DNA of 52,774 bases from Spirochaetota bacterium (lineage in GTDB: Bacteria; Spirochaetota; UBA4802; UBA5550), in the NCBI GenBank assembly GCA_041655115.1, contig JBBAGC010000001.1, forward strand, positions 1 to 52,774. The letters run 5' to 3'. Position 1 is the first letter of the stretch, and the number at the start of each line of letters is the position of its first letter. The translations under genes and the position numbers were made by a program. Shown here piece by piece: positions 936 through 52,247 of the stretch. Below the pieces are notes generated by a model. It did no database searches. It was not told the origin of the DNA and was given only the letters and a program-made list of their open reading frames with translations.

Positions 936-1165
936 GAGACCTTTAAAACCTATCGATTGTGTCATTTCGACCTCTCCCCTGTCACTTCGGCTTCTCTCCC
1001 ATCACTTCGGCCTCTCCCCTGTCACTTTGACCTTCTCCTCCGTCACTTCGAACGCTCCCCTGTCACTTCGAACGCATGTGAGAAGTCTGAAAGATCCCTC
1101 GCTTTGCTCGGGACATGGATTTCTCATCGCTTGCGCTCCTCGAAATGACATTTTTTAAAGGTCTC
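936..1165 (+). mobile_element. MITE-like repeat copy R1
   Basis: Left terminus GAGACCTTTAAAACCTATCGATTGTGTCATTTCGA, right terminus TCGAAATGACATTTTTTAAAGGTCTC. Five 20-bp tandem units lie at 971-1070. The conserved core is AACGCATGTGAGAAGTCTGAAAGATCCCTCGCTTTGCTCGGGACATGGATTTCTC. No flanking duplication is seen, and the left end abuts the truncated integrase. Confidence 0.8.
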
Positions 1166-1182
1166 CTCACGTCAAAAAGAAG

Positions 1183-1211
1183 TTGACATCTATGCCCGGC
1201 ACGAATAAAGT
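1183..1211 (+). promoter_or_regulatory. Sigma70-like promoter for the antitoxin-toxin pair
   Basis: TTGACA (1183-1188), a 17-nt spacer, then TAAAGT (1206-1211). This sits 30 bp upstream of the antitoxin ATG. GGAGG at 1230-1234 provides the RBS. Confidence 0.5.
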
Positions 1212-1228
1212 ATGATGAAATATCATAC
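1210..1228. promoter_or_regulatory. Perfect palindrome GTATGAT-GAAAT-ATCATAC, a candidate operator for the RHH antitoxin
   Basis: Perfect 7-bp arms overlap the -10 element and the transcription start region. This is the usual position of autoregulatory operators in type II TA modules. Confidence 0.5.
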
Positions 1229-1240
1229 CGGAGGTTTGAA

Positions 1241-1483
1241 ATGGCCACGGCCAAGATCGCTATCACCATGAATGCCGATACCGTCAGGAAAATCGACAGA
1301 CTGGTGGGGAAGAGGGTATTCCCAAGCCGCAGCAGGGCTATCCAGGAGGCCGTCGAGGAGAAGCTCGCACGGATGGACAAGAACCGCCTGGCGCGGGAAT
1401 GTGCAAAGCTTGACCCCAAGCTCGAGCAGACCATGGCTGAAGAAGGCATTCACATGGAGCCGTCGGAATGGGCCGAGTATTGA
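1241..1483 (+). CDS. Ribbon-helix-helix (CopG/MetJ-like) antitoxin
   Basis: An 80-aa ORF. Its N terminus (AKIAITMNADTVRKIDRLVGKRVFPSRSRAIQEAVEEKL) is a typical RHH motif. The ORF overlaps the downstream MazF gene by 16 nt and has a good RBS. Confidence 0.8.
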   Translation: MATAKIAITMNADTVRKIDRLVGKRVFPSRSRAIQEAVEEKLARMDKNRLARECAKLDPKLEQTMAEEGIHMEPSEWAEY

Positions 1484-1806
1484 GAGGCGAGATCCGGTGG
1501 GCCGATCTGAATCCCGTGCGCGGGAAAGAACAGGCGGGACACCGGCCGGTGCTGATTCTCAGCCAGGATGTGTTCAATGAACATTCCGGGACCGTGATCG
1601 CCCTGGCCATCACGAGCCGGGAACAATCGGCATCTTTCCCGCTGACGTACCAACTCGATCCCGCTCTTCTTCCGAAACCATCCTGGGTAAAGATCAGCCA
1701 GATCAGGACACTGTCGGTGGAAAGGATCGGTAAAAAGATCGGACGCCTCCCGCCGGACGTCCTGGAACAGATCGTGGAAGGGCTGAATGAAATCATTGGA
1801 GCGTAA
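1468..1806 (+). CDS. mazF: MazF/PemK-family type II toxin endoribonuclease
   Basis: A 112-aa ORF. The segments RGEIRWADLNPVRGKEQAGHRPVLILS and SWVKISQIRTLSVERI match the conserved MazF/PemK core. Confidence 0.85.
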   Translation: MGRVLRGEIRWADLNPVRGKEQAGHRPVLILSQDVFNEHSGTVIALAITSREQSASFPLTYQLDPALLPKPSWVKISQIRTLSVERIGKKIGRLPPDVLEQIVEGLNEIIGA

Positions 1807-1848
1807 AGCCCCCAGGACCACGCCCGGATCATTAGCAGTTTTGCATAC

Positions 1849-2106
1849 GAGACCTTTCAAAACTATCGATTGTGTCACTTCGACCTCTCCTCCGTCACTT
1901 CGAACGCTCCCCTGTCACTTCGGCTTCTCTCCCATCATTTCTGGACTCTCCCCCGTCACTTCGAACGCTCTCCTGTCACTTCGAACGCATGTGAGAAGTC
2001 TCAAAGATCCCTCGCTTTGTTCGGGACATGGATTTCTCGTCGCTACGCTCCTCGAAATGACGAAATCGCTCTGCTCCTCGAAATGACACAATTTAATAAA
2101 GGTCTC
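1849..2106 (+). mobile_element. MITE-like repeat copy R2
   Basis: Same architecture and orientation as R1. The left terminus is GAGACCTTTCAAAACTATCGATTGTGTCACTTCGA. Five 20-bp units lie at 1881-1980, followed by the conserved core. The right terminus is TCGAAATGACACAATTTAATAAAGGTCTC. The right end abuts the truncated abiEii copy, and no flanking duplication is seen. Confidence 0.8.
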
Positions 2107-2390: not shown

Positions 2391-2433
2391 AATATCCCAC
2401 AAATAAACAATATCACCTGAAATCATTTTTTTA

Positions 2434-3546: not shown

Positions 3547-3607
3547 GGGGTATCTTTCGTATGGTCAAAAGATAGATAAAAGATGCCATCGAATATACTA
3601 TGCGCCG

Positions 3608-4636: not shown

Positions 4637-5882
4637 CAGTACCGGTTAATTCAAGTATCAATTCGTGGTAGCGCTCGCTGACCGATGGTCGAGAGTATTC
4701 CTGGATCATAGCATTCCTTGCCGACATGCCCTTTTGTAACCAGGCCTCCCTGTTGTTAAAGGCGTCTCGAATCGCATTGGCCAGAGCCGCGGCATCACCG
4801 GGCCGAATCACAAACCCTCCTCCCGTATCCGTAACAAGGCGTGCAAGATCAGACCCTTCATCGGTGGAGGCTATGACGGGACGTGCACAGGCCATGATCC
4901 TGTAGACTTTCGATGGGATCCCGTCATTACTGGTTCCCCGGGCCTGTGACACAAATGATGCGTCTGTCGAGGCATAGGCTTTCGACATAACCGAATAGGG
5001 CTGATAGGTTAGAAATGTCATGTTGCGAAGCCCAAGCCGGTTTGCATGCGCGATCAACATGTCTCGTTCACTACCGTCACCCATCATCAGAAAATGAATA
5101 TCTTTTTCATATTTCAGGAGGTGTGCCGCTTCGATCAGTGTATCCAACCCTTGCGGTTTTCCCATGTTCCCGGCATAGCTCACTACAAATGGAGCGTCCA
5201 GTCCATACCGTCTGCTAAAATCATTATCCTTGGAAAGGGGGTAAAAGTCCTCCGTATCCACAAAGTTTGGAATCAGTCGGATTTTATGCTCCGGAACTCC
5301 CTTGGATCGAATACGTTCGGCCATTCCCTGGGAAATGACTGTTAAGGCATCCGCTTTTGTGTAAACAAACCTTTCCAGTTTTTTGAGAAGACCTATAAGC
5401 TTGGAGTTTTTTAAGACACCGAGGTTGACCGCAACATCGGGATAGATTTCCTGAACGTTGTATATGAAGGGGCAACGGTGCAACCTCCCCAGCATCCAGG
5501 CGACCGTACCGATGCTCAACGGCGGTGATGGTGCGATTATGATATCCTGCTTCGCTGAGGTAAATAATCCTGCGAGGATGCTTACGGCGTGGAATCCCGC
5601 CCAAGCGCTTATTCGAAGCATCAGGTTTCGTCCCTTACGAGGCATCCAGACGTGGACGACTTTGATCCCCCGATACGAGCTATGCTGGAGCAATTTCCCC
5701 CACAGGGGTTTCAGTGGCTGTACAGCAAGAGCTTCGGCATCTTCATTGTAGTGAGGAACCGTCGTGATAACAGACACTTCATGACCCATGGACTGGAGAT
5801 CAAGAGCCAAATCACCCATAATCTGGGCAGTTGAGACATTATCGGGACGGAAGACAAGTGAAAGGATCAACACTCGGGCCAT
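4629..5882 (-). CDS. wbuB: GT4-family glycosyltransferase, WbuB-like (candidate L-FucNAc transferase)
   Basis: Begins MARVLILSLVFRPDNVSTAQIMGDLALDL... and lies directly downstream of fnlC, as in known L-FucNAc loci. The start was moved to the ATG at 5882. The longer ORF (to 6062) would overlap fnlC by about 170 nt. Confidence 0.7.
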   Translation of the reverse strand: MARVLILSLVFRPDNVSTAQIMGDLALDLQSMGHEVSVITTVPHYNEDAEALAVQPLKPLWGKLLQHSSYRGIKVVHVWMPRKGRNLMLRISAWAGFHAVSILAGLFTSAKQDIIIAPSPPLSIGTVAWMLGRLHRCPFIYNVQEIYPDVAVNLGVLKNSKLIGLLKKLERFVYTKADALTVISQGMAERIRSKGVPEHKIRLIPNFVDTEDFYPLSKDNDFSRRYGLDAPFVVSYAGNMGKPQGLDTLIEAAHLLKYEKDIHFLMMGDGSERDMLIAHANRLGLRNMTFLTYQPYSVMSKAYASTDASFVSQARGTSNDGIPSKVYRIMACARPVIASTDEGSDLARLVTDTGGGFVIRPGDAAALANAIRDAFNNREAWLQKGMSARNAMIQEYSRPSVSERYHELILELTGTDV

Positions 5883-9216: not shown

Positions 9217-10434
9217 TCAATCAACAATAATGAAATCAGGCTTTGGTATATTCCCCATCAGCCAAGCATAAAGAGTTTTCGTTTTTTCTGCCTGCAGGGA
9301 CCATAGGTAGTGAGTGTGAACAAGATTTTTTCCGCGATCCCCCATAGCCCGAAGCTGAATTGGATTTGAATCTATTGCACAGTTAAGTGCATTAACCAGT
9401 CCTTCAATTGTAGCATCGGTCCACCACCCACATTGTAAATTTACCAGTTGCTCCCAAGGCGTCGCTTGTGTCGTTATGACAGGGACCCCTGCTGCTAAAG
9501 CATCTAAAACAACCATCGGTGATCCTTCGCTATAAGAGGGCAATATAAACACGTCAGCCGCGGCAAAGGCGTTACGCTTTTCCTGCCCATAAAGAGGACC
9601 GGAAAATATTACAAGATTTTCCAAGTTTAACTTGTGGACTAAGGCAGCTACCTCCTTCAAGTGCCCGAATTCATCAGATCCGGCAACAATCAACAACCAG
9701 TCACTCATGCGGTCTTGAATTCTTGCCATTGCTTCAAGTAGTATTAACAAACCTTTTTTGGGAGTAATCCTGGACATGAACAAAAGAATCCTTTTGTCTT
9801 GACGTATGGCATAAAGATTACGAAACTGCTCGCCGTTTCCCTTACTTTCAAGCCACGCTGGGGACACACCATTTGAAATTAAGGCTATGGGATTTGAGAG
9901 TCCATAATTTCTGAAGTCAGAAATTTCCTCGTCAGACGTTGCATGCAAACACGAAGCATAGTGCAAATTCTTCCCCTCGTATGCCAAATAGGCCATCTGC
10001 TTTTTCCAAGAGGAATGTTTCAAAGCCCACTTCTGCAGTGAGCCATGGGGCGCTACTACTGTAGGTATTCTATGTTTCTCCCTAATTTTTTTTGTCATAT
10101 ACGAGCACGCCGTCCATATGCCATGTTGATGTACCACATCAAAGCATCCTGCTTCGTTCTTCACAGATAAAAACATCTTGTGACTATACCCCAACCTTGA
10201 AAAAACCTTACAGGGGAAGTTTTTGACTTTATTGTCATTTAATCCGAGATGAGCAACAGCCCACTTAATCTGATCGGCTGGATCAAGACACCATAGCCAG
10301 GCGTCGAGACCAAGTTCATTCTGCGACTGGGCCAAACTGACAGCAACATGACCGAGGCCGAATGATTGTTCCCCGATACTGCTAGTAATATGAAGGGTCT
10401 TTAAAGACATTTCATTCAGAGAAGGATCATGCAT
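9217..10434 (-). CDS. GT4-family (Glycos_transf_1) glycosyltransferase
   Basis: C-terminal PSYSEGSPMVVLDALAAGVPVI motif (EX7E type). The start is uncertain: TTG 10449, ATG 10434 or ATG 10410. The gene is A+T-rich. Confidence 0.75.
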   Translation of the reverse strand: MHDPSLNEMSLKTLHITSSIGEQSFGLGHVAVSLAQSQNELGLDAWLWCLDPADQIKWAVAHLGLNDNKVKNFPCKVFSRLGYSHKMFLSVKNEAGCFDVVHQHGIWTACSYMTKKIREKHRIPTVVAPHGSLQKWALKHSSWKKQMAYLAYEGKNLHYASCLHATSDEEISDFRNYGLSNPIALISNGVSPAWLESKGNGEQFRNLYAIRQDKRILLFMSRITPKKGLLILLEAMARIQDRMSDWLLIVAGSDEFGHLKEVAALVHKLNLENLVIFSGPLYGQEKRNAFAAADVFILPSYSEGSPMVVLDALAAGVPVITTQATPWEQLVNLQCGWWTDATIEGLVNALNCAIDSNPIQLRAMGDRGKNLVHTHYLWSLQAEKTKTLYAWLMGNIPKPDFIIVD

Positions 10435-10514
10435 AGCTGAAGAATACAAAGCAAAACCAAAGGGGGTATAGTATCAGGGCAACGCCATAATCCATTCATG
10501 TTACTCTTCTCTTC

Positions 10515-10662
10515 AAGATCTTTAAAAACTATCGATTGTGTCATTTCGACTTCTCCTCTGTCCCTTCGAACGCATGTGAGAAGTCTGAAAGATCCCTCGC
10601 TTTGCTCGGGACATGGATTTCTCGTCGCGATGCTCCTCGAAATGACAAAATTCAAGGGTCTC
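10515..10662 (+). mobile_element. MITE-like repeat copy R3
   Basis: A degenerate left terminus AAGATCTTTAAAAACTATCGATTGTGTCATTTCGA, one 20-bp unit, the conserved core, and a right terminus ending in GGGTCTC. A perfect 5-bp direct repeat TCTTC flanks it at 10510-10514 and 10663-10667. Confidence 0.85.
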
Positions 10663-10714
10663 TCTTCCATTTCTTGAAGATTATTAAAAGCCATCGTGGC
10701 CGGCCAGGTGAAGA

Positions 10715-11704
10715 TCATCGCAGAAGTACCTGACGATTTGGAAATATATTAAGTCTCTGAATCGCCAACAGTAACGGGTATCTCAATATGTGGTAGAGGA
10801 TCAATTTTTTCTCCCTTAAAGCAAGTTGAAGTCTCAGTACCATATATTGATAACAGCTCAAGTTGCCTTTTTTTATAAGCTTCCTGCACTCAGTAAAATA
10901 CCGCTTCCTTTTCTTTCGTTCCTTAATAATTCCATGGAGAACGGCAGAAAAAAAGTTTGATATAGATATGTGATTGTCTCGATAGGCATCCGTATCATAT
11001 AATTTGGTATTGTGTATGCTCGGACGAAAAAGCACCTGGCTCGTTATGTTGATACTTCCAGTCAACAATAATCTCAAAATAACAACACAATCAGATGCGT
11101 ATTCACCTTTGATGAAATAATCAAACGTACAGGCTTCCATCAAACTTTTTCTTCGATGTAATGAGTAAATCAGATTTGCCTTTCCGATACGTTCTTCTTT
11201 CATAACGAGAAACGCTTTCAATCGCCGAAACAAAAATGGTGAAGATAACTCATTTGAATAGTTAAATGTTTTGCCACCATCCCGATCCAGAACAGCTATA
11301 TTACAGAAAGACATGACGGATGTATCATGCTTCTGTAATAGATCTAATGCACATTCAACAAAGGTATTCGACCATTCATCATCATCCGCAGCCCACATGA
11401 AATACTCGCCTCGAGCCATTTCAAGTACATAGTTAAAATTAAAAATCGCACCTTTATTCTCCGTTTGTCTGTAAAATTCTATCCGCTTATCAATGCGGGA
11501 GAATTCATCGACCACCCTTTCGATCTCATCGCCTGGTGTATTGTTGTCTGAAATTATAATCTGAAGGTTTTCATAGGTTTGAGATGTTATACATTCAAGT
11601 GTTCTCCGAAGGCCGTCCCGCCTACTGTATGTTGGGATGCCTACGCTAACCAAGGAAAAAGTTTTGTTAACTCGCTGGTGACTGGTCACGATATAAGGCA
11701 CCAT
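10715..11704 (-). CDS. GT2-family glycosyltransferase
   Basis: VSVGIPTYSRRDGLRRTLECITSQTYENLQIIISDNNT and an AADDDEW motif. The gene is A+T-rich. Confidence 0.8.
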   Translation of the reverse strand: MVPYIVTSHQRVNKTFSLVSVGIPTYSRRDGLRRTLECITSQTYENLQIIISDNNTPGDEIERVVDEFSRIDKRIEFYRQTENKGAIFNFNYVLEMARGEYFMWAADDDEWSNTFVECALDLLQKHDTSVMSFCNIAVLDRDGGKTFNYSNELSSPFLFRRLKAFLVMKEERIGKANLIYSLHRRKSLMEACTFDYFIKGEYASDCVVILRLLLTGSINITSQVLFRPSIHNTKLYDTDAYRDNHISISNFFSAVLHGIIKERKKRKRYFTECRKLIKKGNLSCYQYMVLRLQLALREKKLILYHILRYPLLLAIQRLNIFPNRQVLLR

Positions 11705-11818
11705 AAAATAGTTATCGTACAGGCTGTCTGCATTGTGACATTTGCACCATGAACACTGACCTTATAAAAGGAACGAATAACATCGTTATTGCTATAGAAA
11801 ACGAAAGGAATGTTCGCG

Positions 11819-21023: not shown

Positions 21024-21134
21024 GAGACCTTTAAAATTTTGTCATTTCGACCTCTCCCCTGTCACTTCGAACGCATGTGAGAAGTCTAAAATATCCCTCG
21101 CCTTGCTCCTCGAAATGACAAAATGAAAGGTCTC
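21024..21134 (+). mobile_element. MITE-like repeat copy R4 (short, internally deleted)
   Basis: GAGACCTTTAAAATTTTGTCATTTCGA, one 20-bp unit, a partial core, then TCGAAATGACAAAATGAAAGGTCTC. No flanking duplication is seen. Confidence 0.75.
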
Positions 21135-23216: not shown

Positions 23217-23313
23217 TCTCAACTCCCTGTAAAGATTTTATGGGGCCAACGCCTGCCGTGTATATTTTGAACAGTTACTACCGCTGCCGCCCTCATGCCG
23301 GCGTTCATTGAAT

Positions 23314-23721
23314 GAGACCTGGTTTGAAAAACTATCGATTGTGTCATTTCGATATCAAGGAAAGATTTCTCGTCGCTTCGCTCCTCGAAATGACATAATC
23401 ACGATGCTCTTCGAAATGACATTTTTAAAGGTCACTTCGAACGCATGTGAGAAGTCTTAAAGATCCCTCGCTGTGCTCGGGACATGGATTTCTCGTCGCT
23501 CTCGCTCCTCGAAATGACGGACCTGAAGGCGCTCCTCGAAATGACAAGGACAGCTTTGAATACCAGCCATTTTTGTCATTTCGACCGTAGGGAGAAATCT
23601 TTTACTAACGGCCGTCATCAGGATTTCTCGTCGCTTCGCTCCTCGAAATGACGGACCTTAAGGCGCTCCTCGAAATGACATAATCGCGATGTTCCTCGAA
23701 ATGACACAATGCAAGGGTCTT
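23314..23721 (+). mobile_element. MITE-like repeat copy R5 (408-bp composite of several modules)
   Basis: The left terminus is GAGACCTGGTTTGAAAAACTATCGATTGTGTCATTTCGA. Several GTCATTTCGA/TCGAAATGAC hairpin modules and the conserved core follow. The right terminus is ...TGACACAATGCAAGGGTCTT. A perfect 5-bp direct repeat TGAAT lies at 23309-23313 and 23722-23726. The element ends 8 bp from the stop codon of the gene at 23730. Confidence 0.8.
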
Positions 23722-23729
23722 TGAATGTC

Positions 23730-24806: not shown

Positions 24807-24818
24807 AGTGGAGAGATT

Positions 24819-24997
24819 GAGACCTTTATTGCATTGTGTCATTTCGAGGAGCATCGCGACGAGAAATCCTGATGACGGCCGTTAGTGAAAGATTTCTCCC
24901 TACGGCCGAAATGACAAAAATGGCTGGTATTCAAAGCTTTCTCGAAGTGACGGGGGAGAGGTCGAAATGACACAATCGACAGTTTTTTAAAGATCTC
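24819..24997 (-). mobile_element. MITE-like repeat copy R6 (reverse orientation)
   Basis: GAGACCTTTATTGCATTGTGTCATTTCGAGG ... TCGAAATGACACAATCGACAGTTTTTTAAAGATCTC. A perfect 5-bp direct repeat AGATT lies at 24814-24818 and 24998-25002. The element begins 12 bp upstream of the start codon at 24806. Confidence 0.8.
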
Positions 24998-25086
24998 AGA
25001 TTGTTTTCAAAAATTTTTCTCGACCGATTGGCGGACAGCACTCACTTCGACCACGCTATGCAGAGAGCAATAAACACGGAACTGAG

Positions 25087-25980: not shown

Positions 25981-25984
25981 AATC

Positions 25985-26860: not shown

Positions 26861-26890
26861 AGAAATGCCGGAACTTTGAGCTGATTCCTC

Positions 26891-27118
26891 GAGACCCTTA
26901 TTGAAAAACTATCGATTGTGTCATGAGACCTTTACATTGTGTCATTTCGAGGAGCGCCCGGGGTACCGTCATTTCAGGGAGCGCCCGGGATACCGCCATT
27001 TCAGGGAGTACCCAGGGTACCGTCATTTCGAGGAGCGAAGCGACGAGAAATCTTTCTTTAATATCGACATGTTGCAAGATTGCTCCCTGCGGTCGAAATG
27101 ACACAATGTAAAGGTCTC
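26891..27118 (+). mobile_element. MITE-like repeat copy R7
   Basis: Two tandem left termini (GAGACC at 26891 and at 26925). Three 27-bp tandem units lie at 26951-27031. The right terminus TCGAAATGACACAATGTAAAGGTCTC is a perfect inverse of 26925-26950. A perfect 5-bp direct repeat TCCTC lies at 26886-26890 and 27119-27123. Confidence 0.8.
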
Positions 27119-27187
27119 TCCTCTATGCCGGACGGGGTTTAACGGCACACTCCAATACGAGAAGGTCACCGCGGGACTATGGAATCC

Positions 27188-38355: not shown

Positions 38356-38504
38356 TTGGCTTACTTGTTCGATTCCTCTGAAGTATTCGTTGCTCTTTGG
38401 ATTTTACGAATGCATTGTTCGGGCGACATACCATCTACATAGCACATGTGTTGGTTTGATATGTCCTGACAGAATGATCCTGAGTTTGATGGAAAATTTG
38501 TTGG

Positions 38505-40484: not shown

Positions 40485-40512
40485 AACTTTCGCCTTTTTT
40501 AACTGGTGCTTA

Positions 40513-41210: not shown

Positions 41211-41230
41211 AATACGTTCGCTGTTGTAGC

Positions 41231-42586
41231 TCAATCGTTCCAATTGCAAATATTCTTTACCACATCCTTTTGGAGACAATCGCGGTATTCTGCAAAACTA
41301 AAATATGATATAAGATGGTTATTGTTAATGTTCGGAATTGAATTTTGATGAGGACATACTGAACAAGCCGTATTCAAAAAATTAACGTCTGACGAATCAA
41401 AATATTTTCGAGAGATTACGTAATGCATGCTGTTAAAGACGTTAATGTCTGATAAAATATTCCCGAATAACGCGGACGGATCTTTCAAGGGTTCAAAACA
41501 ACAAGGAAATATGCGGCCAGTGGCGTCCATGGCCATGTCTTTATACAACCACTGACAAGTTTTCATATTTGGCCTTGATCCTTCAAGATAGTCGTCGTCC
41601 ACACGTGAGACCCATGATTTCTCCCAATGATCCTCAATGATCGGATGAAGGTCTATTACAGCGTTTTCAAGAGACTGGCGGCCAGCGCCAATTTGTAAAT
41701 TGAATACATTATAACGAGGTAGTAGGTTTAATGGTTTAGTAATTGTTGGATCGTACATTGAAACATCATATGGTTCGGCAAAATCGATCCGGTCCACACC
41801 TCTCTCTTGGGCCAACTTTTTCGCTTGATTTATTTCAGATATCGTATGATCAAAAAGAAGGTACTGCCATACAATAAAAGGCGTTTTTGATTTCAAATCT
41901 TTGCGGGCTTTAACAAGACGGGTAATGTTGTCGAGGACAAGATCGAAGTTGCCATTGACACGGTACTTACCATAAGTTTCGGCAGTAGCCCCATCGATAG
42001 ATAAAATCAAATAGTCAAGCCCTGAGGCAACCAGCGCCTCTGCATCAAAAGAAAGCGAAAGATTTGTAGAAATAGATGTACGCATCAAAAAACGGCGCGA
42101 TTCCTGAATGAATTGTGGTGTTTTTTTGTTTAACAAAGGCTCCCCCCAGTTAAAATATTGGGTGTTGATTGCATAAGGCCCGAATTCATAGAGGAGTCGG
42201 TCAAGAGTGTCCTTATTCAGGTTACCAGGAACCCAGTCAATTTTGCTTTTATCTTGAGCTGTTTTTCGATGAATGCATCCAGGGCACGCCAATTGGCAGG
42301 AATTACATGGATCGACAATAAGACCAAACGGACGTGAAATCAGTCGGCTATGTCGTCGCAGGTATTGGTATTTACCCACTGCAACGTTGGATATCTTGAG
42401 CAATAAAACTTTGGCAAATCTTTCCGAGCCATAGACTTGCTTTAGATAACTCAACGATTCTCTATTGAAGTTGTCGACTTTTTTAAGAAATATATCAAAT
42501 TCAATTTCAGACTCGCTGAGCGCGGACAGTTCATTTAACAAATTCGATATCGGCAGAAAGTTAGTATTCATTGCCACTTTTTCCAT
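41231..42586 (-). CDS. Radical SAM enzyme with a SPASM/twitch-like C-terminal cysteine motif; function unknown
   Basis: CQLACPGC (CX3CX2C), NWGEPLL and LILSIDGATAETYGKYR form the radical-SAM core. The C-terminal segments CQWLYKDMAMDATGRIFPCC and ACSVCP are SPASM/twitch-like. The ATG at 42586 is preferred over the TTG at 42592. The gene is A+T-rich. Confidence 0.8.
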   Translation of the reverse strand: MEKVAMNTNFLPISNLLNELSALSESEIEFDIFLKKVDNFNRESLSYLKQVYGSERFAKVLLLKISNVAVGKYQYLRRHSRLISRPFGLIVDPCNSCQLACPGCIHRKTAQDKSKIDWVPGNLNKDTLDRLLYEFGPYAINTQYFNWGEPLLNKKTPQFIQESRRFLMRTSISTNLSLSFDAEALVASGLDYLILSIDGATAETYGKYRVNGNFDLVLDNITRLVKARKDLKSKTPFIVWQYLLFDHTISEINQAKKLAQERGVDRIDFAEPYDVSMYDPTITKPLNLLPRYNVFNLQIGAGRQSLENAVIDLHPIIEDHWEKSWVSRVDDDYLEGSRPNMKTCQWLYKDMAMDATGRIFPCCFEPLKDPSALFGNILSDINVFNSMHYVISRKYFDSSDVNFLNTACSVCPHQNSIPNINNNHLISYFSFAEYRDCLQKDVVKNICNWND

Positions 42587-42607
42587 CACCAACTGTAGGG
42601 TGAGTCC

Positions 42608-43639
42608 TTAATTTTTACACTTTATCTTGCGACTAAAAGTTTTCATCATACCAACTATTTGTTTCCCTACTGATTTATATCGAAGGCATTCAAAATGTTG
42701 CTGCAGTTCCTGTAATTCATTTTTATCCGGGTCTCCCGGAAGTTGATTGAGAATGGACTGATAATAATCATTTGCCCGCTTGCTCTCTCTGCTCTTCGGT
42801 TTAAACGAAGAAGATGTCTCATCTATCTTTGAACTGTTAATTTTCTCCTTTAACGGCAAAAGACAATCCGGATTAAATTCCTCTCCCAAAAAGTCAAAAC
42901 AACTGCTCAATGTTGATTCAGGCGAATTAATAAATTCAGTATAACCAATACGCAATACCTTGTTCTTACCGAGCGCTTTCTCACCTTTAATTGCATACTC
43001 AACATGCTTAATCCAATGATCATAAGCTTTTGCTTCATCATGGTTCGCACCGGCGCTTCCCGCCTGAGAAAATTTCATTAAAGAACGCGCAACCTCGTTC
43101 GGGTCTCGAAGCAAATGGATAAATCGCGCTCCGGGAAACAGCAGGGACAAACTATACATGTAATAAACATTCTCCGGTGTCCCATCCACCCAGCGTCGCT
43201 TTGGATCAGATACACTACGAACAACTTGAATATTCTTATTACTAATCGGAGATGTAAATACTTCTCCGGCATTCATTCTTTCATTAATCTCTTTCTCTGT
43301 TAACCCCAACTTTTGCAGGGAACTCTTTTGTATAAACCGTAGACGCGGCTCTCGCGTATCTACAATAAACTGGTCAAGCGCCCGGCCAAAAGCGCCATAA
43401 AAATCCGCCTCATCCCAGTCAAGCGCGCCCAAATGTGAAAAGCGACCGTGTACGGTGCCGACTTCGTAAAGTTTCCGCATGTCAATCGTCAAACGGGCTA
43501 TCCAGTGTGTTTCTGGAAGCGGCAAAATATTGGGGTGCTGCCCAAGACACCAGGTAAGAACACTTGTCCCGGAACGTCCTGAACCGACTATAAATACCGG
43601 CTCGCATTGAGACTGTCGATTAACTTTCACTGAACTCAT
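42608..43639 (-). CDS. Sulfotransferase-family protein, paralogue 1
   Basis: A GSGRSGTS loop (5'-phosphosulfate-binding type) and an RDPNEVARS motif (3'-phosphate-binding type). The ATG at 43639 is preceded by GAGAGG. A GTG at 43645 is an alternative start. Confidence 0.8.
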   Translation of the reverse strand: MSSVKVNRQSQCEPVFIVGSGRSGTSVLTWCLGQHPNILPLPETHWIARLTIDMRKLYEVGTVHGRFSHLGALDWDEADFYGAFGRALDQFIVDTREPRLRFIQKSSLQKLGLTEKEINERMNAGEVFTSPISNKNIQVVRSVSDPKRRWVDGTPENVYYMYSLSLLFPGARFIHLLRDPNEVARSLMKFSQAGSAGANHDEAKAYDHWIKHVEYAIKGEKALGKNKVLRIGYTEFINSPESTLSSCFDFLGEEFNPDCLLPLKEKINSSKIDETSSSFKPKSRESKRANDYYQSILNQLPGDPDKNELQELQQHFECLRYKSVGKQIVGMMKTFSRKIKCKN

Positions 43640-43727
43640 ATTCACCTCTCTGAAACAACTTGCTCCTTTCTACTATTCGCTTCACGAGTAAAGATACCAT
43701 TTCTTCAGAAGAAGTTTTCTCGTTGGA

Positions 43728-44714
43728 TTATGCTTTGTTGATATCGGCGGCATAATTTTCGAAATGTTGTTGCAGTCCCTGCAATTCAACTTGATCAGGG
43801 TCTCCCGGTGATTGATTAAGAATGGACTGATAATAATCATTTGCCCGTTTGCTCTCTCTACTTTTCGGTTTAAATGAAGCAAGAGGCTCATCTATCTTTG
43901 AACTGTTGATTTTCTCCTTTAACGGCAAAAGACAATCCGGATTAAATTCCTCTCCCAAAAAACCAAAACAACTGCGCAACGTAGATTCAGATGAATTAAT
44001 AAAATCTATGTAATCAATTCGTAACACCTTATCCCACCCCAGCGCTTTCTCACCTTTAATTGCATACTCAACATGCTTAAGCCAATGCTCATAAGCTTTT
44101 GCTTCATCATGGTTCTCGCCGGCGCTTCCCGCCTGAGAAAATTTCATTAAAGAACGTGCAACCTCGTTCGGATCCCGAAGTAAATGGATAAACCGCGCTC
44201 CGGGAAACAGCAGAGACAAGCTATACATGTAAAACACATTCTCTGGTGTCCCATCCACCCAGCGACGCTTTGGATCAGATACACTACGAACAACTTGGTA
44301 ATTCTTGGGTGTGACAAGGTCAGGATCCGGACTCAGCTTTCCTTCCTTTTCAAGGTTCTCGATATCAGATTCACTTAATCCTTTTTTTTTGGCTGATAAT
44401 TTACGAATAAATCTCAAACGAGCATCGATTGTATCAATTACGAATTGGTCGACTGAACGTCCAAATGAGGCATAAAAATCCGCCTCATCCCAGTCAAGCG
44501 CGCCCAAATGTGAAAAGCGACCGTGTACGGCGCCGACTTCGTAAAGTTTCCGCATGTTAATCGTCAAACGGGCTATCCAGTGTGTTTCCGGAAGTGGCAA
44601 AATATTGGGGTGCTGCCCAAGACACCAAGTGAGAAGACTTGTTCCCGAACGACCAGAACCGACAATAAATACCGGCTCGCATTGAGACTGTCGATTAACT
44701 TTCACTGAACTCAT
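43728..44714 (-). CDS. Sulfotransferase-family protein, paralogue 2 (tandem duplicate)
   Basis: Numbering from the track GTG start, the first 28 residues are identical to paralogue 1, and the RBS region is also identical. It carries the same GSGRSGTS and RDPNEVARS motifs. The central segment and the C terminus differ. Confidence 0.8.
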   Translation of the reverse strand: MSSVKVNRQSQCEPVFIVGSGRSGTSLLTWCLGQHPNILPLPETHWIARLTINMRKLYEVGAVHGRFSHLGALDWDEADFYASFGRSVDQFVIDTIDARLRFIRKLSAKKKGLSESDIENLEKEGKLSPDPDLVTPKNYQVVRSVSDPKRRWVDGTPENVFYMYSLSLLFPGARFIHLLRDPNEVARSLMKFSQAGSAGENHDEAKAYEHWLKHVEYAIKGEKALGWDKVLRIDYIDFINSSESTLRSCFGFLGEEFNPDCLLPLKEKINSSKIDEPLASFKPKSRESKRANDYYQSILNQSPGDPDQVELQGLQQHFENYAADINKA

Positions 44715-44753
44715 ATTCACCTCTCTGAAATTTGACGCTCGATGGGGGACTTG

Positions 44754-45092
44754 TTACGAGGACGTCAGATTTGCCTTCTGGACAAAGTCACGTGCCCGGT
44801 TGATTTGAGCAGGCGAAAGTTCAACGCGATGGAAAACAAAATCATCAATGCCCTCTTTTTTCAACCCTTTTGCCACACCAACTTCAACCTGCGCATCTCC
44901 ACATCCAAAACTGATCAAATTCCGATTGCCCGTTTTTATGATTCGTTCTGCAAATGGCTTCCAATAAAACTCCAGATGGTTGTTCACAGCAAATATTTCC
45001 GTAAAACCTAGTTTGAAATATTTTTCCTGCCAGTATCGAAAAATATCAGAAAGCTGTGCATGCATGTTTTCAGTATGTTCGTATTGCCGCAT
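44754..45092 (-). pseudogene. N-terminal half of a class I SAM methyltransferase (probable truncated gene)
   Basis: LISFGCGDAQVEVGVAKGL (motif I) and FHRVELSPAQINRARDF (post-I) are present. The ORF stops after about 112 aa, before motifs II and III, 33-40 nt ahead of the sulfotransferase start. Confidence 0.5.
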
Positions 45093-45127
45093 ATTGTTTT
45101 GTTCTGTTAAACACAAATCCTCTCCCG

Positions 45128-45883
45128 CTATTTTCTTGTCTGAACTATACTTTTACGATAAGCTTCCAATACTTTGGGAACCTTGCCCTGTGCCTGGGTT
45201 TTGCCATTTTCTATCCAGATCAACCTGTCACAAATTTCCTGTATTAGAGGGATCACATGTGAAACCAGAACTACCGTTTTGTCAGACTTTATCCGTCTCT
45301 TCATTGCCGCCGTAGATTTTTCTTTGAAAGCCTCATCACCAACCCCAAGAACTTCATCCAACAAAATAACATCCGGGTCTAGATGATAGGCAACGGAGAA
45401 GCCCAGTCGGGCACGCATACCGGTGGAATAGGTGTTAACTGGTTCTTCGAAAAAGCCGTTGAGCTCAGAGAAGGCAACGATATCATCTAAACGAGATGCT
45501 ATTTCTTGTTTCTTAGCACCCAACAACATGCCGCTCAAGATGGCATTTTCTCGACCGCTCAGATGCGGCACGAAGCCGGCTCCAATTGAGATCATTGTTA
45601 TTTTTAAGTTTGGCTGGTGTACGATTATCTTTCCTTTATTGGGTGCAATGATACCGCCCAATACTCGAAGAAGCGTACTTTTACCACACCCGTTTCTTCC
45701 TATCACACCCAGAGTTTCACCTGCATACAAGTCAAACGATACATCTTGGAGCGCCCAGAAGTGAGAATGTCGTAAAAAGCGAAGACGACGGCTGTAGCAC
45801 AAGCCAACATTTTCAAGAGTAATGATTCTATTGCCTTTTTGATTGGGGTACAGTGGCTTACTTTTGTGTGCCTCAAGGGACAT
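45128..45883 (-). CDS. wzt: ABC-transporter ATP-binding protein for polysaccharide export (Wzt/TagH-like), without a C-terminal carbohydrate-binding extension
   Basis: Walker A GRNGCGKST, signature YSTGMRARL, and Walker B ILLDEVL. The protein is only 251 aa. Confidence 0.85.
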   Translation of the reverse strand: MSLEAHKSKPLYPNQKGNRIITLENVGLCYSRRLRFLRHSHFWALQDVSFDLYAGETLGVIGRNGCGKSTLLRVLGGIIAPNKGKIIVHQPNLKITMISIGAGFVPHLSGRENAILSGMLLGAKKQEIASRLDDIVAFSELNGFFEEPVNTYSTGMRARLGFSVAYHLDPDVILLDEVLGVGDEAFKEKSTAAMKRRIKSDKTVVLVSHVIPLIQEICDRLIWIENGKTQAQGKVPKVLEAYRKSIVQTRK

Positions 45884-45904
45884 TATACGACTCTCAATAA
45901 ATAT

Positions 45905-46702
45905 TTAATGAATGATTTTGGGATAAATCCGGTCAAATCTGTAATACAATAACATTGCAAAAGCCATCGTTACCGCAGAGAATAATATAATCAATACAAG
46001 ATGTAGCAAATCAGGAAGAACGCTGTTGTGAAGCACTTGGCGGTACATATTGATCATAACTGCCATCGGATTCAACCAGAGATAACCCTGAATAGATTCA
46101 GGCAATCTTGAAATGTCAAAAAAAATCCCGGAAAGGAAAAAGAGCATCAGCAGGAAATTATCCAATATGAAGCGAAGATCCGGGAAAAAGGGCATAATTG
46201 CCGCGAAAAAACCGGACACTGCTACAATTAAAAAGAGTTGCGTCACTATCAAAATCGGCAGAAACGTCCAGGACCACGTTATCTTCGTTTCCGTGAATTG
46301 CAGAAAAACAAGATAGAGTGCGAGGACCACAAAAAATTTAAAGGTATTGACTGCAACGGTGGTCAGGGGAAAAAGAATTTTCGGGACGTACACCTGGTTC
46401 ATCAGTCCAACATTTGCCATGAGACTGCTCGCACCGGCAGAAACGGTTGACTGGAACCATTTCCATACAATCAGGCCGGTCAGCAGAAAAATAACAAAAT
46501 TCTCATCACCCCGCTTAAATAGGTGTAAGAAAACAAAGTAAAAAATAGTCATGTACATAACTGGTTCTAAAATCCACCACAGCACCCCCAGATAACCCCG
46601 TGAAGCTTCCACGCGCAATCCGGCTTTTGCTTTCTGCATTACCAGATCAATGAAATGTCGCCGCTCCTTATAGCCTGTGCGAATCGTGTCTTTGATGCTC
46701 AT
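45905..46702 (-). CDS. wzm: ABC-2-type polysaccharide export permease (Wzm-like)
   Basis: About 265 aa with six hydrophobic segments. GYLGVLWWILEPVMYM is typical of ABC-2 permeases. A GTG at 46717 is an alternative start. Confidence 0.8.
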   Translation of the reverse strand: MSIKDTIRTGYKERRHFIDLVMQKAKAGLRVEASRGYLGVLWWILEPVMYMTIFYFVFLHLFKRGDENFVIFLLTGLIVWKWFQSTVSAGASSLMANVGLMNQVYVPKILFPLTTVAVNTFKFFVVLALYLVFLQFTETKITWSWTFLPILIVTQLFLIVAVSGFFAAIMPFFPDLRFILDNFLLMLFFLSGIFFDISRLPESIQGYLWLNPMAVMINMYRQVLHNSVLPDLLHLVLIILFSAVTMAFAMLLYYRFDRIYPKIIH

Positions 46703-47757: not shown

Positions 47758-47903
47758 GGGACCTTTAAAACTATCGATTGTGTCATTTCGACCTCTCCCC
47801 CGTCATTTCGAACGCATGTGAGAAGTCTGAAAGATCCCTCGCTTTGCTCGGGACATGGATTTCTCGTCGCGATGCTCCTCGAAATGACACAATGAAAGGT
47901 CTC
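47758..47903 (+). mobile_element. MITE-like repeat copy R8
   Basis: GGGACCTTTAAAACTATCGATTGTGTCATTTCGA, one 20-bp unit, the conserved core, then TCGAAATGACACAATGAAAGGTCTC. The flanking pentamers AATCT (47753-47757) and GATCT (47904-47908) match at 4 of 5 positions. Confidence 0.8.
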
Positions 47904-50292: not shown

Positions 50293-50314
50293 ATCCTGCT
50301 TTCTGTCAAAAACT

Positions 50315-50509
50315 GGAGACCTTTCATTTTATCATTTCGAGAAGCATGGCGACGAGAAATCCATGTCCCGAGCACAGCGAGGGGTCTTCTAGACTTCTCA
50401 CATGCGTTCGAAGTGACCTTTAAAAATGTCATTTCGAGGAGCGAAGCGACGAGAAATCTTTCCTTGATATCGAAATGACACACAATCGATAGTTTTTCAA
50501 TAACGGTCT
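50315..50509 (-). mobile_element. MITE-like repeat copy R9 (reverse orientation), between cysD and cysN
   Basis: GAGACCTTTCATTTTATCATTTCGAG ... reversed core ... TCGAAATGACACACAATCGATAGTTTTTCAATAACGGTCTC. A perfect 5-bp direct repeat AACTG lies at 50310-50314 and 50510-50514. Confidence 0.85.
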
Positions 50510-50570
50510 CAACTGGATTTATTCTTCGAATACTGCATCTCGTTTTCGTGGGAATGACGTGAAGGAGGTT

Positions 50571-51479
50571 TTAAAAATAACCGTTGATCTTTCTGTCCTC
50601 CATGGCGGTATCAGAGCGTTTGTCGTCGAAACGGCCGCCCCGCTCGGTGATTCTCGAAGCGGCCACTTCCTGTATGATGTCTTCCACGGTGGACGCCTGG
50701 GAGGTGACAACGCCGGTACAGGTCATGTCGCCCACGGTGCGGCACCGGACGACCAATTCTTCGACCCGGTCGGCGTCGTCGACCTGGACATAGGGGGACA
50801 GGGCGAGCATGACGCCGTCACGGTGAACAACTTTTCGGGTGTGGGAAAAATAGATGTCCGGGATAGGAATATTCTCCAAGGCAATGTACTGCCAGACATC
50901 CATTTCGGTCCAGTTGCTCAAGGGGAAAACGCGGAAATGTTCGCCCATATGCTTTCGGCCGTTAAAAATGTTCCAGAGCTCGGGGCGCTGATTCTTGGGG
51001 TCCCACTGGCCGAAATCGTCGCGATGGGAGAAGAAACGTTCCTTGGCTCGGGCCTTTTCTTCATCACGGCGGGCACCGCCGATTGCCGTGTCGAATTTGT
51101 GTTCTTCGATGGCGTCAAGCAACGTGGTGGTCTGGAGAACGTTGCGGGACGTGTATTTCCCTGTTTCTTCCACAACACGCCCCCTGTCGATAGACTCCTG
51201 GACCGAGGCTACAATCAACTGCGCGTCGAGCATCGCGATAAAGGTATCACGGTATTTGATGGTTTCGGGAAAATTGTGGCCCGTGTCCACGTGCATGAAC
51301 GGATAGGGAATGCGCGCGGGGAAGAAGGCTTTTCTCGACAGCCGGCCGAGAACGATCGAATCCTTGCCGCCGGAAAAGAGCAGGACAGGGTTTTCAAACT
51401 GTGCCGCCACCTCCCGTAAAATAAAAACTGCTTCCGATTCCAGTTCCCGCAGGTGTGTGATGTAATATTGCTGTGGCAT
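50571..51479 (-). CDS. cysD: Sulfate adenylyltransferase subunit 2
   Basis: LRELESEAVFILREVAAQFENPVLLFSGGKDS (PP-loop) and the CysD-typical ...RISGYF-type C terminus (here KINGYF). The size is 302 aa. Confidence 0.9.
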   Translation of the reverse strand: MPQQYYITHLRELESEAVFILREVAAQFENPVLLFSGGKDSIVLGRLSRKAFFPARIPYPFMHVDTGHNFPETIKYRDTFIAMLDAQLIVASVQESIDRGRVVEETGKYTSRNVLQTTTLLDAIEEHKFDTAIGGARRDEEKARAKERFFSHRDDFGQWDPKNQRPELWNIFNGRKHMGEHFRVFPLSNWTEMDVWQYIALENIPIPDIYFSHTRKVVHRDGVMLALSPYVQVDDADRVEELVVRCRTVGDMTCTGVVTSQASTVEDIIQEVAASRITERGGRFDDKRSDTAMEDRKINGYF

Positions 51480-51506
51480 ACTGTAGCAGACACTCCTTTT
51501 AGCGTT

Positions 51507-52124
51507 TTATGTTCTATGGTAACTCGTGCTCAAAATACCCTCTTTTTCCAGATAGCCTACTATGATGCTGACGTTTTTGCTGATCGTGACGGCATTGTCG
51601 TTGACGAGGGTCAGTTCGGGGTTTACTGGTGGTTCGTACGGGGAATCGATGCCGGTGAAGTCCGGAATTTCTCCGTTCCGCGCCTTTTGGTAAAGGCCCT
51701 TGGGATCACGCCGTTCGCAGGTGGCGAGATCGGCATCGACGAAGATTTCGATAAAGTCGCCCTGCGGCATAAGATTCCGCACGAAATCCCGATCCTTGAT
51801 AAAGGGTGAAATGAACGCCGTCAGAACGATTATCCCGGCGTCCACGAACAGCTTTGCCACTTCGCCGATCCGTCGGATGTTTTCCCTCCGGGCTTCGTCG
51901 GTGAAGCCAAGGTCGGCGTTGAGACCATGGCGTATGTTGTCGCCGTCAAGAATGTAGGTGTGGATGATCCGGGCGTTAAGCACCGCTTCAAGCGCGTCGG
52001 CGAGCGTGGACTTGCCGCTACCCGAAAGACCGGTGAACCAGAGACAGGCGCCACGGTGGTTCTTGATTTGTTCGCGATCTTTTCGGGTAATCGTACCCGG
52101 ATGCCAGGTTACATAATTTTTCAT
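51507..52124 (-). CDS. cysC: Adenylyl-sulfate (APS) kinase
   Basis: CLWFTGLSGSGKSTLA P-loop, LDGDNIRHGLN, and FISPF motifs. Confidence 0.9.
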   Translation of the reverse strand: MKNYVTWHPGTITRKDREQIKNHRGACLWFTGLSGSGKSTLADALEAVLNARIIHTYILDGDNIRHGLNADLGFTDEARRENIRRIGEVAKLFVDAGIIVLTAFISPFIKDRDFVRNLMPQGDFIEIFVDADLATCERRDPKGLYQKARNGEIPDFTGIDSPYEPPVNPELTLVNDNAVTISKNVSIIVGYLEKEGILSTSYHRT

Positions 52125-52135
52125 CGGAATGTGGT

Positions 52136-52247
52136 GAGACCTTTAAAAACTATCGATTGTGCCATTTCGATATCAAGGAAAGATTTCTCGTCGCTTCGCT
52201 CCTCGAAATGACGGACCTTAAGACGCTCCTCGAAATGACGGATCTTG
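52136..52247 (+). mobile_element. MITE-like repeat copy R10 (left part only)
   Basis: GAGACCTTTAAAAACTATCGATTGTGCCATTTCGATATCAAGGAAAGATTTCTCGTCGCTTCGCTCCTCGAAATGAC..., the same hairpin module as at the start of R5. The right part is replaced at 52248 by the IS-end fragment. Confidence 0.7.

Follow-up and report, generated by a model that had tools for sequence, protein, structure and literature searches.

The ten repeats dispersed through the 52,774-nt stretch of DNA analyzed here (the window) belong, with high probability, to a single family of non-autonomous DNA transposons (MITEs), presumably moved by a transposase supplied in trans and most likely of the DDE type. We assign the host to an uncultured Syntrophales bacterium represented by a landfill MAG, in which the copies are spread through a polysaccharide gene cluster. 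The element is of an ordinary kind, a new MITE family; the hairpin that it carries as cargo is unusually widespread. That its hairpin modules are REP-like units common to several phyla could not be seen by the initial annotation.

Architecture and setting of the copies

All ten copies that had been listed are present where they had been placed, save R9, which is shifted by one position to 50316-50510, where it starts with GAGACC and ends with GGTCTC; R3 and R8 have variant starts (AAGATC and GGGACC, respectively). The right end of R10 is truncated, which leaves nine complete copies. The features, with target-site duplications abbreviated as TSDs, are as follows:

R1, 936..1165, plus strand: 230 bp; long terminus at left; full core; interior with a 20-nt GTCACTTCGA-CCTCTCCCC array of 5.6 copies; no TSD (ATAAC/CTCAC)
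Gene fragment adjoining R1, 735-935: no family assigned
R2, 1849..2106, plus strand: 258 bp; R1-like architecture, 86% identity to R1 over 198 nt; no TSD
Duplicated, truncated AbiEii 3' end, 2107-2366: starts exactly at the right boundary of R2
R3, 10515..10662, plus strand: 148 bp; canonical form, running from a long terminus through a half-site and three hairpin units to a short terminus; perfect TSD TCTTC
R4, 21024..21134, plus strand: 111 bp, internal deletion, two short termini; no TSD (CGGGT/CTTTT)
R5, 23314..23721, plus strand: 408 bp, compound or fused; keeps an ...AAAGGTC remnant of a terminus inside and carries five or more hairpin units; perfect TSD TGAAT
R6, 24819..24997, minus strand: 179 bp; long terminus at right; without core; perfect TSD AGATT
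R7, 26891..27118, plus strand: 228 bp; 34-nt long-terminus fragment, then a second GAGACC start; 27-nt tandem array of 3.6 copies; perfect TSD TCCTC enclosing the whole copy
R8, 47758..47903, plus strand: 146 bp, canonical form, 93% identity to R3; TSD AATCT/GATCT, 4 of 5
31-nt hairpin unit (example), 47859..47888, minus strand: GTC-ATTTC-GA-GGAGC-ATC-GCGAC-GA-GAAAT-C; unit found across phyla
25-nt hairpin unit (example), 47802..47826, plus strand: GTC-ATTTC-GA-ACGCATGT-GA-GAAGT-C; other stem and loop
R9, 50316..50510, minus strand: 195 bp; R5-like fused architecture, between cysD and cysN; perfect TSD AACTG
R10, 52136..52247, plus strand: 112 bp; long terminus kept, right end missing
D11, an unrelated 111-nt repeat: directly adjoins R10 at right

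Reading the sequence confirmed the imperfect terminal inverted repeats (TIRs) that had been described, namely GAGACCTTT, 5-25 nt, and then TGTCATTTCGA; these termini are inverted on both ends in nine copies and come in two types, long (with AAAACTATCGATTGTG) and short. Counting both strands, there are 29 occurrences of the motif GTCATTTCGA, vs. 0.19 expected, and none of 100 shuffles reached 29. The core of ~60 bp, which most copies had been said to carry, is complete (at least 56 of 60 positions) in six of them (R1, R2, R3, R5, R8, and R9), partial in R4 (36/60) and R7, and missing from R6 and R10. The interior consists of hairpin units and tandem arrays and, at 111-408 bp, the copies are too small for a protein and have no coding capacity. 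Relative to the operon, eight are in plus and two in minus orientation. Besides the ten copies in the window, others lie on five other metagenome contigs, counts that are lower bounds (the scan missed this locus's own JGI contig). Of the generic features of a MITE, small size, no coding capacity, TIRs, a TSD of fixed length, and multiple dispersed copies are present.

Chance similarity, or an artefact of assembly or binning, is an extremely improbable explanation of this family: the sequence is derived from a MAG, and contigs of related assemblies tend to end at these repeats (L131 at R2 and L132 at R3), but NCBI, JGI, ENA, and Logan records give independent assemblies of the identical sequence, which is therefore not an assembly artefact, and both the motif count and the TSD statistics given below argue against chance.

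Two copies had been thought to truncate genes. R2 does adjoin a duplicated and truncated AbiEii 3' end (repeats D13, D15, and D18), and Pfam recognizes AbiEii in the full copy. The proposed truncation of an integrase by R1 could not be confirmed: the adjoining fragment has no match in Pfam, NCBIfam, or PDB, and its label rests solely on a short H..R..Y-like motif judged by eye. The copies inside the cluster are all intergenic; R5 is inserted after the upstream GT4 gene, 8 nt past its stop codon, and R6 sits upstream of a WecA-like GT4 gene, 12 nt from its likely start codon (24806). The remark that the elements occupy most of the larger gaps proved circular, as subtracting the element and one copy of the TSD leaves gaps of 78-171 nt, like those of unoccupied spacers.

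Target-site duplications and mobility

Perfect TSDs flank five of the nine complete copies, and they do so solely at a length (k) of 5 and at offset 0. The pentamers reported by the initial annotation were all verified (TCTTC, TGAAT, AGATT, TCCTC, and AACTG as perfect pairs, AATCT/GATCT at 4 of 5 positions). No perfect flanking match was found among the nine at k = 3, 4, or 6-9, and none of the 72 cross-pairs of left and right flanks matched; the chance of at least five perfect pentamers in nine is estimated at ~1e-13. A perfect TSD is lacking in the other four complete copies (none in R1, R2, and R4; 4/5 in R8).

It had been allowed that further copies might not exist, or that their flanking pentamers might not be doubled; 5-bp duplications are in fact found at copies on other contigs and in other Desulfobacterota. 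Among the extra copies outside the window, perfect duplications are seen in two (AATGG/AATGG and GGATT/GGATT), three match at 4 of 5 positions, and one shows none. The loci beyond the window that have perfect 5-bp TSDs are L123, L125, L038, and L098, the last two with GAGACCTTTGCAAAA-bounded elements in two other Desulfobacterota genomes (L038, ACTTT; L098, TAAAT). L038 has the same termini and a TSD while the hairpin unit is absent; termini and TSD therefore work independently of the hairpins. In the closest relatives, the orthologous cysD-cysN spacer is element-free and 18-21 nt long, vs. 278 nt here, and is too diverged for a base-precise empty-site comparison. A base-precise empty site was not found, every other assembly of the locus being from the same strain. 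Taken together, the TSD statistics, the further TSD-keeping copies, and the element-free spacer of relatives uphold the earlier claim that these repeats reflect transposition rather than conserved regulatory sequence.

These observations suggest the following scenario. The element would have been inserted by a transposase acting in trans, most likely of the DDE class, for which the TSD is the sole ground. A search of ~1 Mb of DNA, the rest of the contig, and PLSDB plasmids, which took in 116 genome loci and five metagenome loci, revealed no autonomous element bearing these termini. A 5-nt staggered cut of the target would, after repair, yield the 5-bp direct duplication. The interior is a mosaic of REP-like stem-loop units and not a remnant of a transposase gene, and recombination and slippage among these units would account for the observed size range and the fused copies. 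Insertions would have occurred in ordinary 80-170-nt intergenic spacers of the minus-strand polysaccharide cluster, where the lack of a canonical terminator would make the copies tolerable. Presumably the copies form strong hairpins in the shared transcript, and they may influence expression, the attenuator, processing, and promoter roles proposed earlier being possibilities.

Hairpin units and their spread across phyla

The stacked hairpin modules that had been pointed out are stem-loops of ~25-31 nt with strong covariation. In each unit, a tag (TGTC or CGTC) is followed by a 5-bp stem, which a tandem G.A separates from a 2-bp stem closed by a loop of 3-4 nt. Nine stem positions can be counted, of which positions 6-7 are the conserved tandem G.A; loops are mainly of 3 nt (GAA, AAA, GTA, and GCA), some of 4 nt, and the 3' tail is a C followed by a variable base in the alignment. 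Near the query arm the tag is mostly TGTC and sometimes CGTC, GTC being invariant in alignment A1. Perfectly complementary stems number 310, vs. 3 in shuffles, and 289 of these 310 open with an A-T and then a T-A pair. The covariation score of the units (0.416 vs. 0.211 ± 0.021) was reached in none of 500 shuffles, and slid registers gave at most 0.19. Units occur singly, as inverted head-to-head doublets, or in 20-27-nt tandem arrays, and an inverted partner with tags outward lies within 90 nt of 71 of the 129 query arms. Units beside the query arm retain their own complementarity (ATTCC/GGAAT, ATGTT/AACAT, and ACCCT/AGGGT); since these stems are self-complementary though unable to pair perfectly with the ATTTC/GAAAT arm, the small hairpin is itself conserved and not just the long one. 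Folds of whole copies have z-scores of -2.2 to -7.0 on either strand.

At least 116 loci, which carry the labels of 16 phyla, contain a unit of 28 specified bases with hardly any change. In Desulfobacterota the doublet lies within TIR/TSD shells, whereas in Chloroflexota and Clostridia it is "naked": an outer inverted repeat surrounds it in 0 of 8 and 1 of 13 cases, respectively. Such doublets, the conservation of the small hairpin itself, and the resemblance of the unpaired 5' tag, covarying stems, and head-to-head arrangement to tagged REPs would fit a REP/BIME-type scheme, in which the units move as ssDNA by means of a RAYT-like or other IS200/IS605-related tyrosine HUH transposase and the GAGACC termini just lengthen the palindrome. 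However, target duplication is not produced in HUH/Y1 transposition, yet exact 5-bp TSDs stand at the GAGACC boundaries; termini and TSD occur in L038 with no hairpin; and no recurrent neighboring protein, Y1 included, was found around the units at the 116 loci. On this evidence we consider the scheme improbable.

Strong covariation, stable folds, and conservation of the 28-base unit across phyla, together with the intergenic position of all in-cluster copies, where they would be co-transcribed, could also be those of structured RNAs or cis-regulatory elements of the polysaccharide operon (stabilizers, processing sites, or attenuators), selected by the host and kept for function rather than mobility. 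This appears even more doubtful, given the TSDs, the occurrence of copies in both orientations relative to transcription, their highly variable architecture and length, and the absence of the element from the same spacers in relatives. The neighbors of the units in other genomes are unrelated housekeeping genes. Rfam gave no match at gathering score over the window, and only a chance-level miRNA match (E = 0.17) in 23200-27200; imperfect stems show no strand bias of G.U vs. A.C; and consensus scans found terminator-like sites at chance level, none inside an element, and no promoter excess above chance. As to the transposon reading, covariation in the hairpins is unexpected for a DDE substrate recognized purely as dsDNA, a sign that something may depend on ssDNA or RNA structure.

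Relationship to known repeat families

REPINs are tagged with GTAG, leave no TSD, and flank a RAYT gene at some place in the genome. The present units resemble REPINs and BIMEs in forming inverted doublets of short hairpins, which make one long or two small hairpins, and in their mosaic organization; they differ from REPIN/RAYT systems by the (T/C)GTC tag, by the lack of a RAYT near the units at the 116 loci, and by the 5-bp TSD on the composite. Correia/NEMIS, ERIC, RUP, and BOX are likewise small intergenic repeats, modular or bounded by TIRs, that form hairpins and are co-transcribed, as the present copies presumably are; termini and duplications differ (Correia duplicates TA), and there is no sequence relationship. 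Termini of the Tn3 family are ~38 bp long, start with GGGG, and end with ...TAAG; those found here, as read by eye, appear different, starting with GAGACC and ending with ...TTCGA. TIMEs, the Tn3-derived inverted-repeat miniature elements (PMC4133298), are likewise non-autonomous with 5-bp duplications. BOX is modular, with a variable number of modules (PMC3184786).

Chunjie, from Geobacter uraniireducens Rf4, is bounded by 21-bp TIRs and by 9-bp direct repeats (e.g., ACGACCGGT) and measures 178-235 bp in the passages that cite its description (Chen et al. 2008, per PMC10969869, PMC3184786, and PMC6042816). As far as those passages go, it is also a MITE of a deltaproteobacterial (Desulfobacterota-type) anaerobe, located within an operon without obvious disruption and with many partial or size-variant copies and very stable predicted hairpins; the element here, with its 5-bp duplications and GAGACC termini, differs from it in the defining features.

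The CGTC-tagged REP superfamily, which includes the dRS3/NIME units of Neisseria and RPE-4/-6 of Rickettsia, is described as having a CGTC tag (variants TGTC and CCTC), an 8-9-bp stem that opens with complementary A-T residues, a loop of 4-5 nt, and a 3-nt tail fitting CCA (Di Nocera et al. 2013, PMC3733652). The five phyla named there do not include Desulfobacterota, Chloroflexota, or Clostridia. Compared with this description, our units are alike in that they have an unpaired 5' CGTC or, very often, TGTC tag, chiefly form head-to-head dimers that keep their tags on the outside, lie in intergenic DNA flanked by co-directional genes, and have no dedicated transposase nearby. The stem resembles theirs in part, having ~9 positions and mostly A-T and T-A as first pairs, with a conserved tandem G.A breaking it at positions 6-7. 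Differences are the loop, mostly of 3 nt, the 3' tail, in which C is followed by a variable base instead of the CCA ending, and the embedding of the units in a TIR/TSD element.

We tentatively suggest, as a possibility well short of the confidence placed in the MITE family itself, that the hairpin doublet is an independent cross-phylum module of REP type, related to the "orphan" CGTC REPs with no known transposase, which in Desulfobacterota was repeatedly captured by, or invaded, several miniature transposons of the TIR/TSD kind that are unrelated to one another and have duplications of 5 and 6 bp, and which spreads as hitch-hiking cargo of DDE-mobilized shells. If true, this would be a two-tier parasitism that could explain the spread of tagged REPs without a dedicated transposase. 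The hairpin unit itself, common to genomes labelled as 16 phyla, with clear stem covariation, and found both naked and inside TIR/TSD shells, makes concrete, and supplies testable candidates for, the standing question of how CGTC-type REPs move and persist without one (PMC3733652).

For this uncultured syntroph, the new MITE family is useful for annotation, breaks assemblies, and marks recent plasticity of a surface-polysaccharide locus. The elements also give rise to spurious ORFs such as a 100-aa call across R3 and an extended start of the WecA-like gene.

Copies, termini, and target-site duplications

A repeat search of the window, inverted relationships included, recovered all ten copies (R1–R10) of the MITE described in the initial annotation, and reading each copy confirmed that the repeat family is real and lies where it had been placed, except that R9 requires a one-base shift, to 50316–50510. 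Counted on both strands, there are 29 occurrences of the 10-mer GTCATTTCGA, whereas 0.19 would be expected and no shuffled sequence reached that number. Read with their flanks, the copies end in a GAGACCTTT tip followed, after 5–25 nt, by TGTCATTTCGA; the tip varies to AAGATC in R3 and GGGACC in R8, and the right end of R10 is missing. The ∼60-bp core, initially attributed to most copies, is complete in six of the ten, incomplete in R4 and R7, and missing from R6 and R10; an exact 32-mer of this core had no match in representative genomes. TRF reported a 20-nt unit repeated 5.6 times in R1 and R2 and a 27-nt unit repeated 3.6 times in R7.

With boundaries set at GAGACC/GGTCTC, identical pentamers flank five of the nine complete copies, as had been claimed, and one more copy matches at four positions of five. 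Perfect flank matches of the window copies are seen solely at k = 5 and offset 0, none of the 72 left × right cross-pairings matches, and the estimated probability of at least five perfect pentamers among nine arising by chance is ∼1e−13. Scanning metagenomes with the long terminus gave at least five further loci, four of them from the same landfill sample. Metagenome copy counts are lower bounds because the collection is not exhaustive: contig Ga0172382_10011190 (L120), which contains R10 in a form that fits the pattern, was missed by the scan.

Flanking pentamers (left / right) of copies outside the window
L123: AATGG / AATGG, perfect
L125: GGATT / GGATT, perfect
L122: GCATC / GCCTC, 4 of 5
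L126: ACTCC / ACCCC, 4 of 5
L122, second copy: GAACC / AACCG, 1-nt ambiguity
L125 (3740–3884): AAGAA / GAACC, no match

Automated screening for equal pentamers beside GAGACC-type ends added elements in two other Desulfobacterota genomes, at L038 (ACTTT) and L098 (TAAAT). Additional copies lacking duplications had been named as a sign that the matches were due to chance; the perfect pentamers at L123, L125, L038, and L098 argue against this, and duplications both in the window and at extra copies support the reading of the repeats as mobile elements.

The best-supported explanation is a MITE family mobilized in trans; the transposase responsible would cut its target with a 5-nt stagger and would probably be of the DDE class, the usual source of such duplications. 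A rival view, transposition of the hairpins in ssDNA form by a Y1/HUH enzyme, fits the naked doublets (head-to-head pairs of hairpin units without outer inverted repeat) but not the TSD-bounded copies of the window. As to a partner for a MITE mobilized in trans, no long element with GAGACC-type termini and a TSD was present in the scanned DNA, where all such elements are at most 246 bp and every terminus of this type examined runs into hairpins or a short element. The rest of the contig (11.6 kb) yielded no autonomous partner, and a distant-match search of PLSDB plasmids gave no match. Duplications of 5–6 bp are made by the IS1634, IS1380, IS701/ISAba11, ISH3, IS2 group, IS1202, ISDol1-like ISNCY, and Tn3 families, among others; none of these families is known to have GAG-initial termini.

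The elements are a new MITE family, ordinary in kind. Chunjie MITEs are ruled out by their 21-bp TIRs and 9-bp direct repeats, and REPIN/RAYT identity is ruled out because the tag differs, no RAYT was seen near the units, and a TSD is present. Motif 10-mers retrieved only primer noise from the literature searched, and MITEs in Syntrophales/Smithella nothing relevant; the family is not described there.

Structure and distribution of the hairpin unit

The cargo of these elements consists of REP-like stem-loops of ∼25–31 nt (tag, 5-bp stem, tandem G·A, 2-bp stem, triloop). By using the anchor GTC-N5-GA-(7–13 nt)-GA-N5, with both N5 left free, we found 310 instances with perfectly complementary N5 pairs in ∼0.92 Mb of DNA, versus 3 in the shuffled control. 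They comprise 12 different stem pairs (ATTTC/GAAAT 255, ATTCC/GGAAT 25, ACTTC/GAAGT 11, ACCCT/AGGGT 6, ATGTT/AACAT 5, and others), and the inner closing pairs covary too (GC-NNN-GC, CC-NNN-GG, AC-NNN-GT). For 54 distinct units, picked only by nearness to the query arm, a criterion independent of their stems, covariation under the proposed structure scores 0.416 versus 0.211 ± 0.021 after shuffling (reached in 0 of 500), slid registers scoring at most 0.19; this result stands with out-of-register noise rows left in. Neighboring units keep their own stem complementarity though perfect pairing of these stems with the adjacent arm is not possible, which indicates that the small hairpins are conserved, not only the long inter-arm hairpin. 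Imperfect stems show no bias between G·T and A·C, and they give no pointer to the functional strand or to action as DNA or RNA. Predicted copy by copy, as initially proposed, the folds are stable: each whole copy folds into a long hairpin from which the small units branch (z −2.2 to −7.0, both strands).

Rfam contains no family matching the elements or the unit. Three other readings of the hairpins were dropped: CRISPR (no spacers), integron attC (no GTTRRRY core sites), and K-turn (no 3-nt bulge beside the G·A pairs). The unit resembles the CGTC-tagged REP superfamily in its tag, often TGTC, its A-T-initial stems, its head-to-head dimers, and the lack of a dedicated transposase (Di Nocera et al., PMC3733652), but differs from it in loop length, tandem G·A, and tail.

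A 31-nt query with the 3-nt loop left free (28 specified bases) matched exactly at ≥116 loci of species-representative genomes, several on contigs of 0.2–1.1 Mb. Among the matches listed, record titles name 16 phylum-level groups.

Groups with the unit, from the record titles of the matches listed
(i) Desulfobacterota, Chloroflexota, Clostridia, Calditrichota, Binatia, Acidobacteriota, Omnitrophota, Spirochaetota
(ii) Elusimicrobiota, Bacteroidota, Pseudomonadota, KSB1, Nitrospinota, Planctomycetota, Saccharibacteria, Fibrobacterota

The cargo is the unexpected part: many phyla share a virtually identical REP-like hairpin, with covarying stems. No recurrent neighbor protein or transposase surrounds the 129 unit matches listed, only unrelated generic housekeeping families. 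The exact unit is also present in two viral or proviral contigs of IMG/VR (L127 and L128), and such contigs are a possible vehicle for its cross-phylum spread.

Among the matches listed, an outer inverted repeat above the mismatched-flank control accompanies 26 of 36 doublets in Desulfobacterota, none of 8 in Chloroflexota, and one of 13 in Clostridia; the Desulfobacterota types are GAGACCTTT..., GAGAGCTTTGCATAA, GATGGTTTCGCAA, CCTACAAC..., and GTGYCTGA... Sister families were searched for by a TIR of ≥7/8 plus an exact duplication, which among the same listed matches gave 5 doublets with a 6-bp duplication (0 in controls) and 12 with a 4-bp duplication (∼1 in controls). At L038 (358–499; Ca. 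Desulfaltia bathyphila), GAGACCTTTGCAAAA termini and the perfect 5-bp TSD enclose an unrelated interior without hairpin unit, so that shell (the TIR/TSD part) and hairpin cargo are separable components. The doublet is naked in some phyla and stands in different TIR/TSD shells in Desulfobacterota.

Genomic setting of the elements

The window corresponds to bases 1–52,774, reverse-complemented, of contig JAVEXL010000013.1 (MAG GCA_034004005.1), annotated at NCBI as Syntrophales bacterium. It is also found at ∼100% identity in municipal-landfill metagenome 3300015214 (PMC9723747) and in ENA and Logan assemblies, which rules out an assembly artefact. The ∼50-kb cluster of polysaccharide genes, on the minus strand, includes cysC/D/N, rmlABCD, gmd/fcl, several glycosyltransferases, two WecA-like GT4 genes, an ABC exporter, and sulfotransferases.

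Features of the window
332–596: AbiEii 3′ end and downstream sequence, duplicated at 2107–2366
735–935: stretch initially called an integrase gene truncated by R1
1187–1803, + strand: RHH-antitoxin/PemK-MazF toxin pair between R1 and R2, at the left end
10416–10718: 100-aa public gene call spanning R3
24807–24854: public start of a WecA-like GT4 gene, inside R6 (MLLEMTQCNKGL...)
41018–41128 and 52248–52358: two copies, 84% identical, of a 111-nt repeat that is not related to the MITE and has no Rfam match
42608–44720: two tandem sulfotransferase paralogues, DNA identity 86–87%

Elements had been reported in most larger gaps, and 7 of the 10 gaps of ≥200 bp do hold one; this is no preference, however, since after removal of the element and one pentamer the occupied gaps measure 78–171 nt, the same as unoccupied gaps, indicating that elements enlarge gaps and do not choose large ones. 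Two copies sit close to coding sequence: R5 is 8 nt past a stop codon, and R6 is 12 nt upstream of a likely start. Between 20 and 28 kb, terminator-like sites (9 vs. 8.2, none inside an element) and promoter-like sites (5 vs. 5.2) are at chance level. Effects on mRNA stability or processing are plausible given the analogy with REP and Correia elements; regulatory roles are speculation. The elements distort the public gene calls at 10416–10718 and 24807–24854, and the true start of the WecA-like GT4 gene is likely 24806.

R1 and R2 are in direct orientation, 86% identical, and both without TSD. The truncated abiEii copy reported beside R2 is indeed there, the duplicate beginning exactly at the right boundary of R2, while searches lend no support to the integrase identity of 735–935. 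The arrangement at 936–2366 suggests that a rearrangement associated with the elements took place at the border of a defence island. Outside the window, just beyond its start, lie AbiEi/AbiEii, Eco57I/TaqI_C, and XhoI-type genes.

No family member lies near cysD-cysN in the closest CysD relatives (88–90% identical), whose spacers there are 18–21 nt. Nor was any empty site found: other assemblies represent the same strain, and relatives' spacers are short or differently occupied and not alignable. In other relatives (L134–L137, about 4910–5760), the spacer holds a 23S_rRNA_IVP-family gene, with tandem GAGATTGAATGATT repeats and the inverse of these repeats ahead of it. Insertions of different kinds have repeatedly landed in the cysD-cysN spacer. 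Downstream of cysN, close relatives (L139 6255–6320, also L140) carry a solitary unit, TGTC-ATTTC-GA-TCGATGA-GA-GAAAT-C. An IS (DUF4372 + DDE_Tnp_1, termini TGTATCCC...; L139 6300–7910, also L140) is inserted directly beside it, reminiscent of IS elements targeting REP sequences, with a fragment of a group II intron maturase (GIIM) in the vicinity. This transposase is ruled out as the MITE partner because its termini are unrelated.

One copy of the 111-nt repeat (52248–52358) adjoins R10 on its truncated side, upstream of cysC, and the other occupies a 746-nt gap upstream of an acyltransferase gene (38505–40484); a leader or promoter region may have been duplicated here. The sulfotransferase pair is a recent tandem duplication within the cluster. 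G+C content is 41–44% at 10000–12000 and 38000–46000, versus 50–55% in the rest of the cluster; such low-G+C stretches are a usual mark of serotype-specific polysaccharide genes exchanged horizontally.
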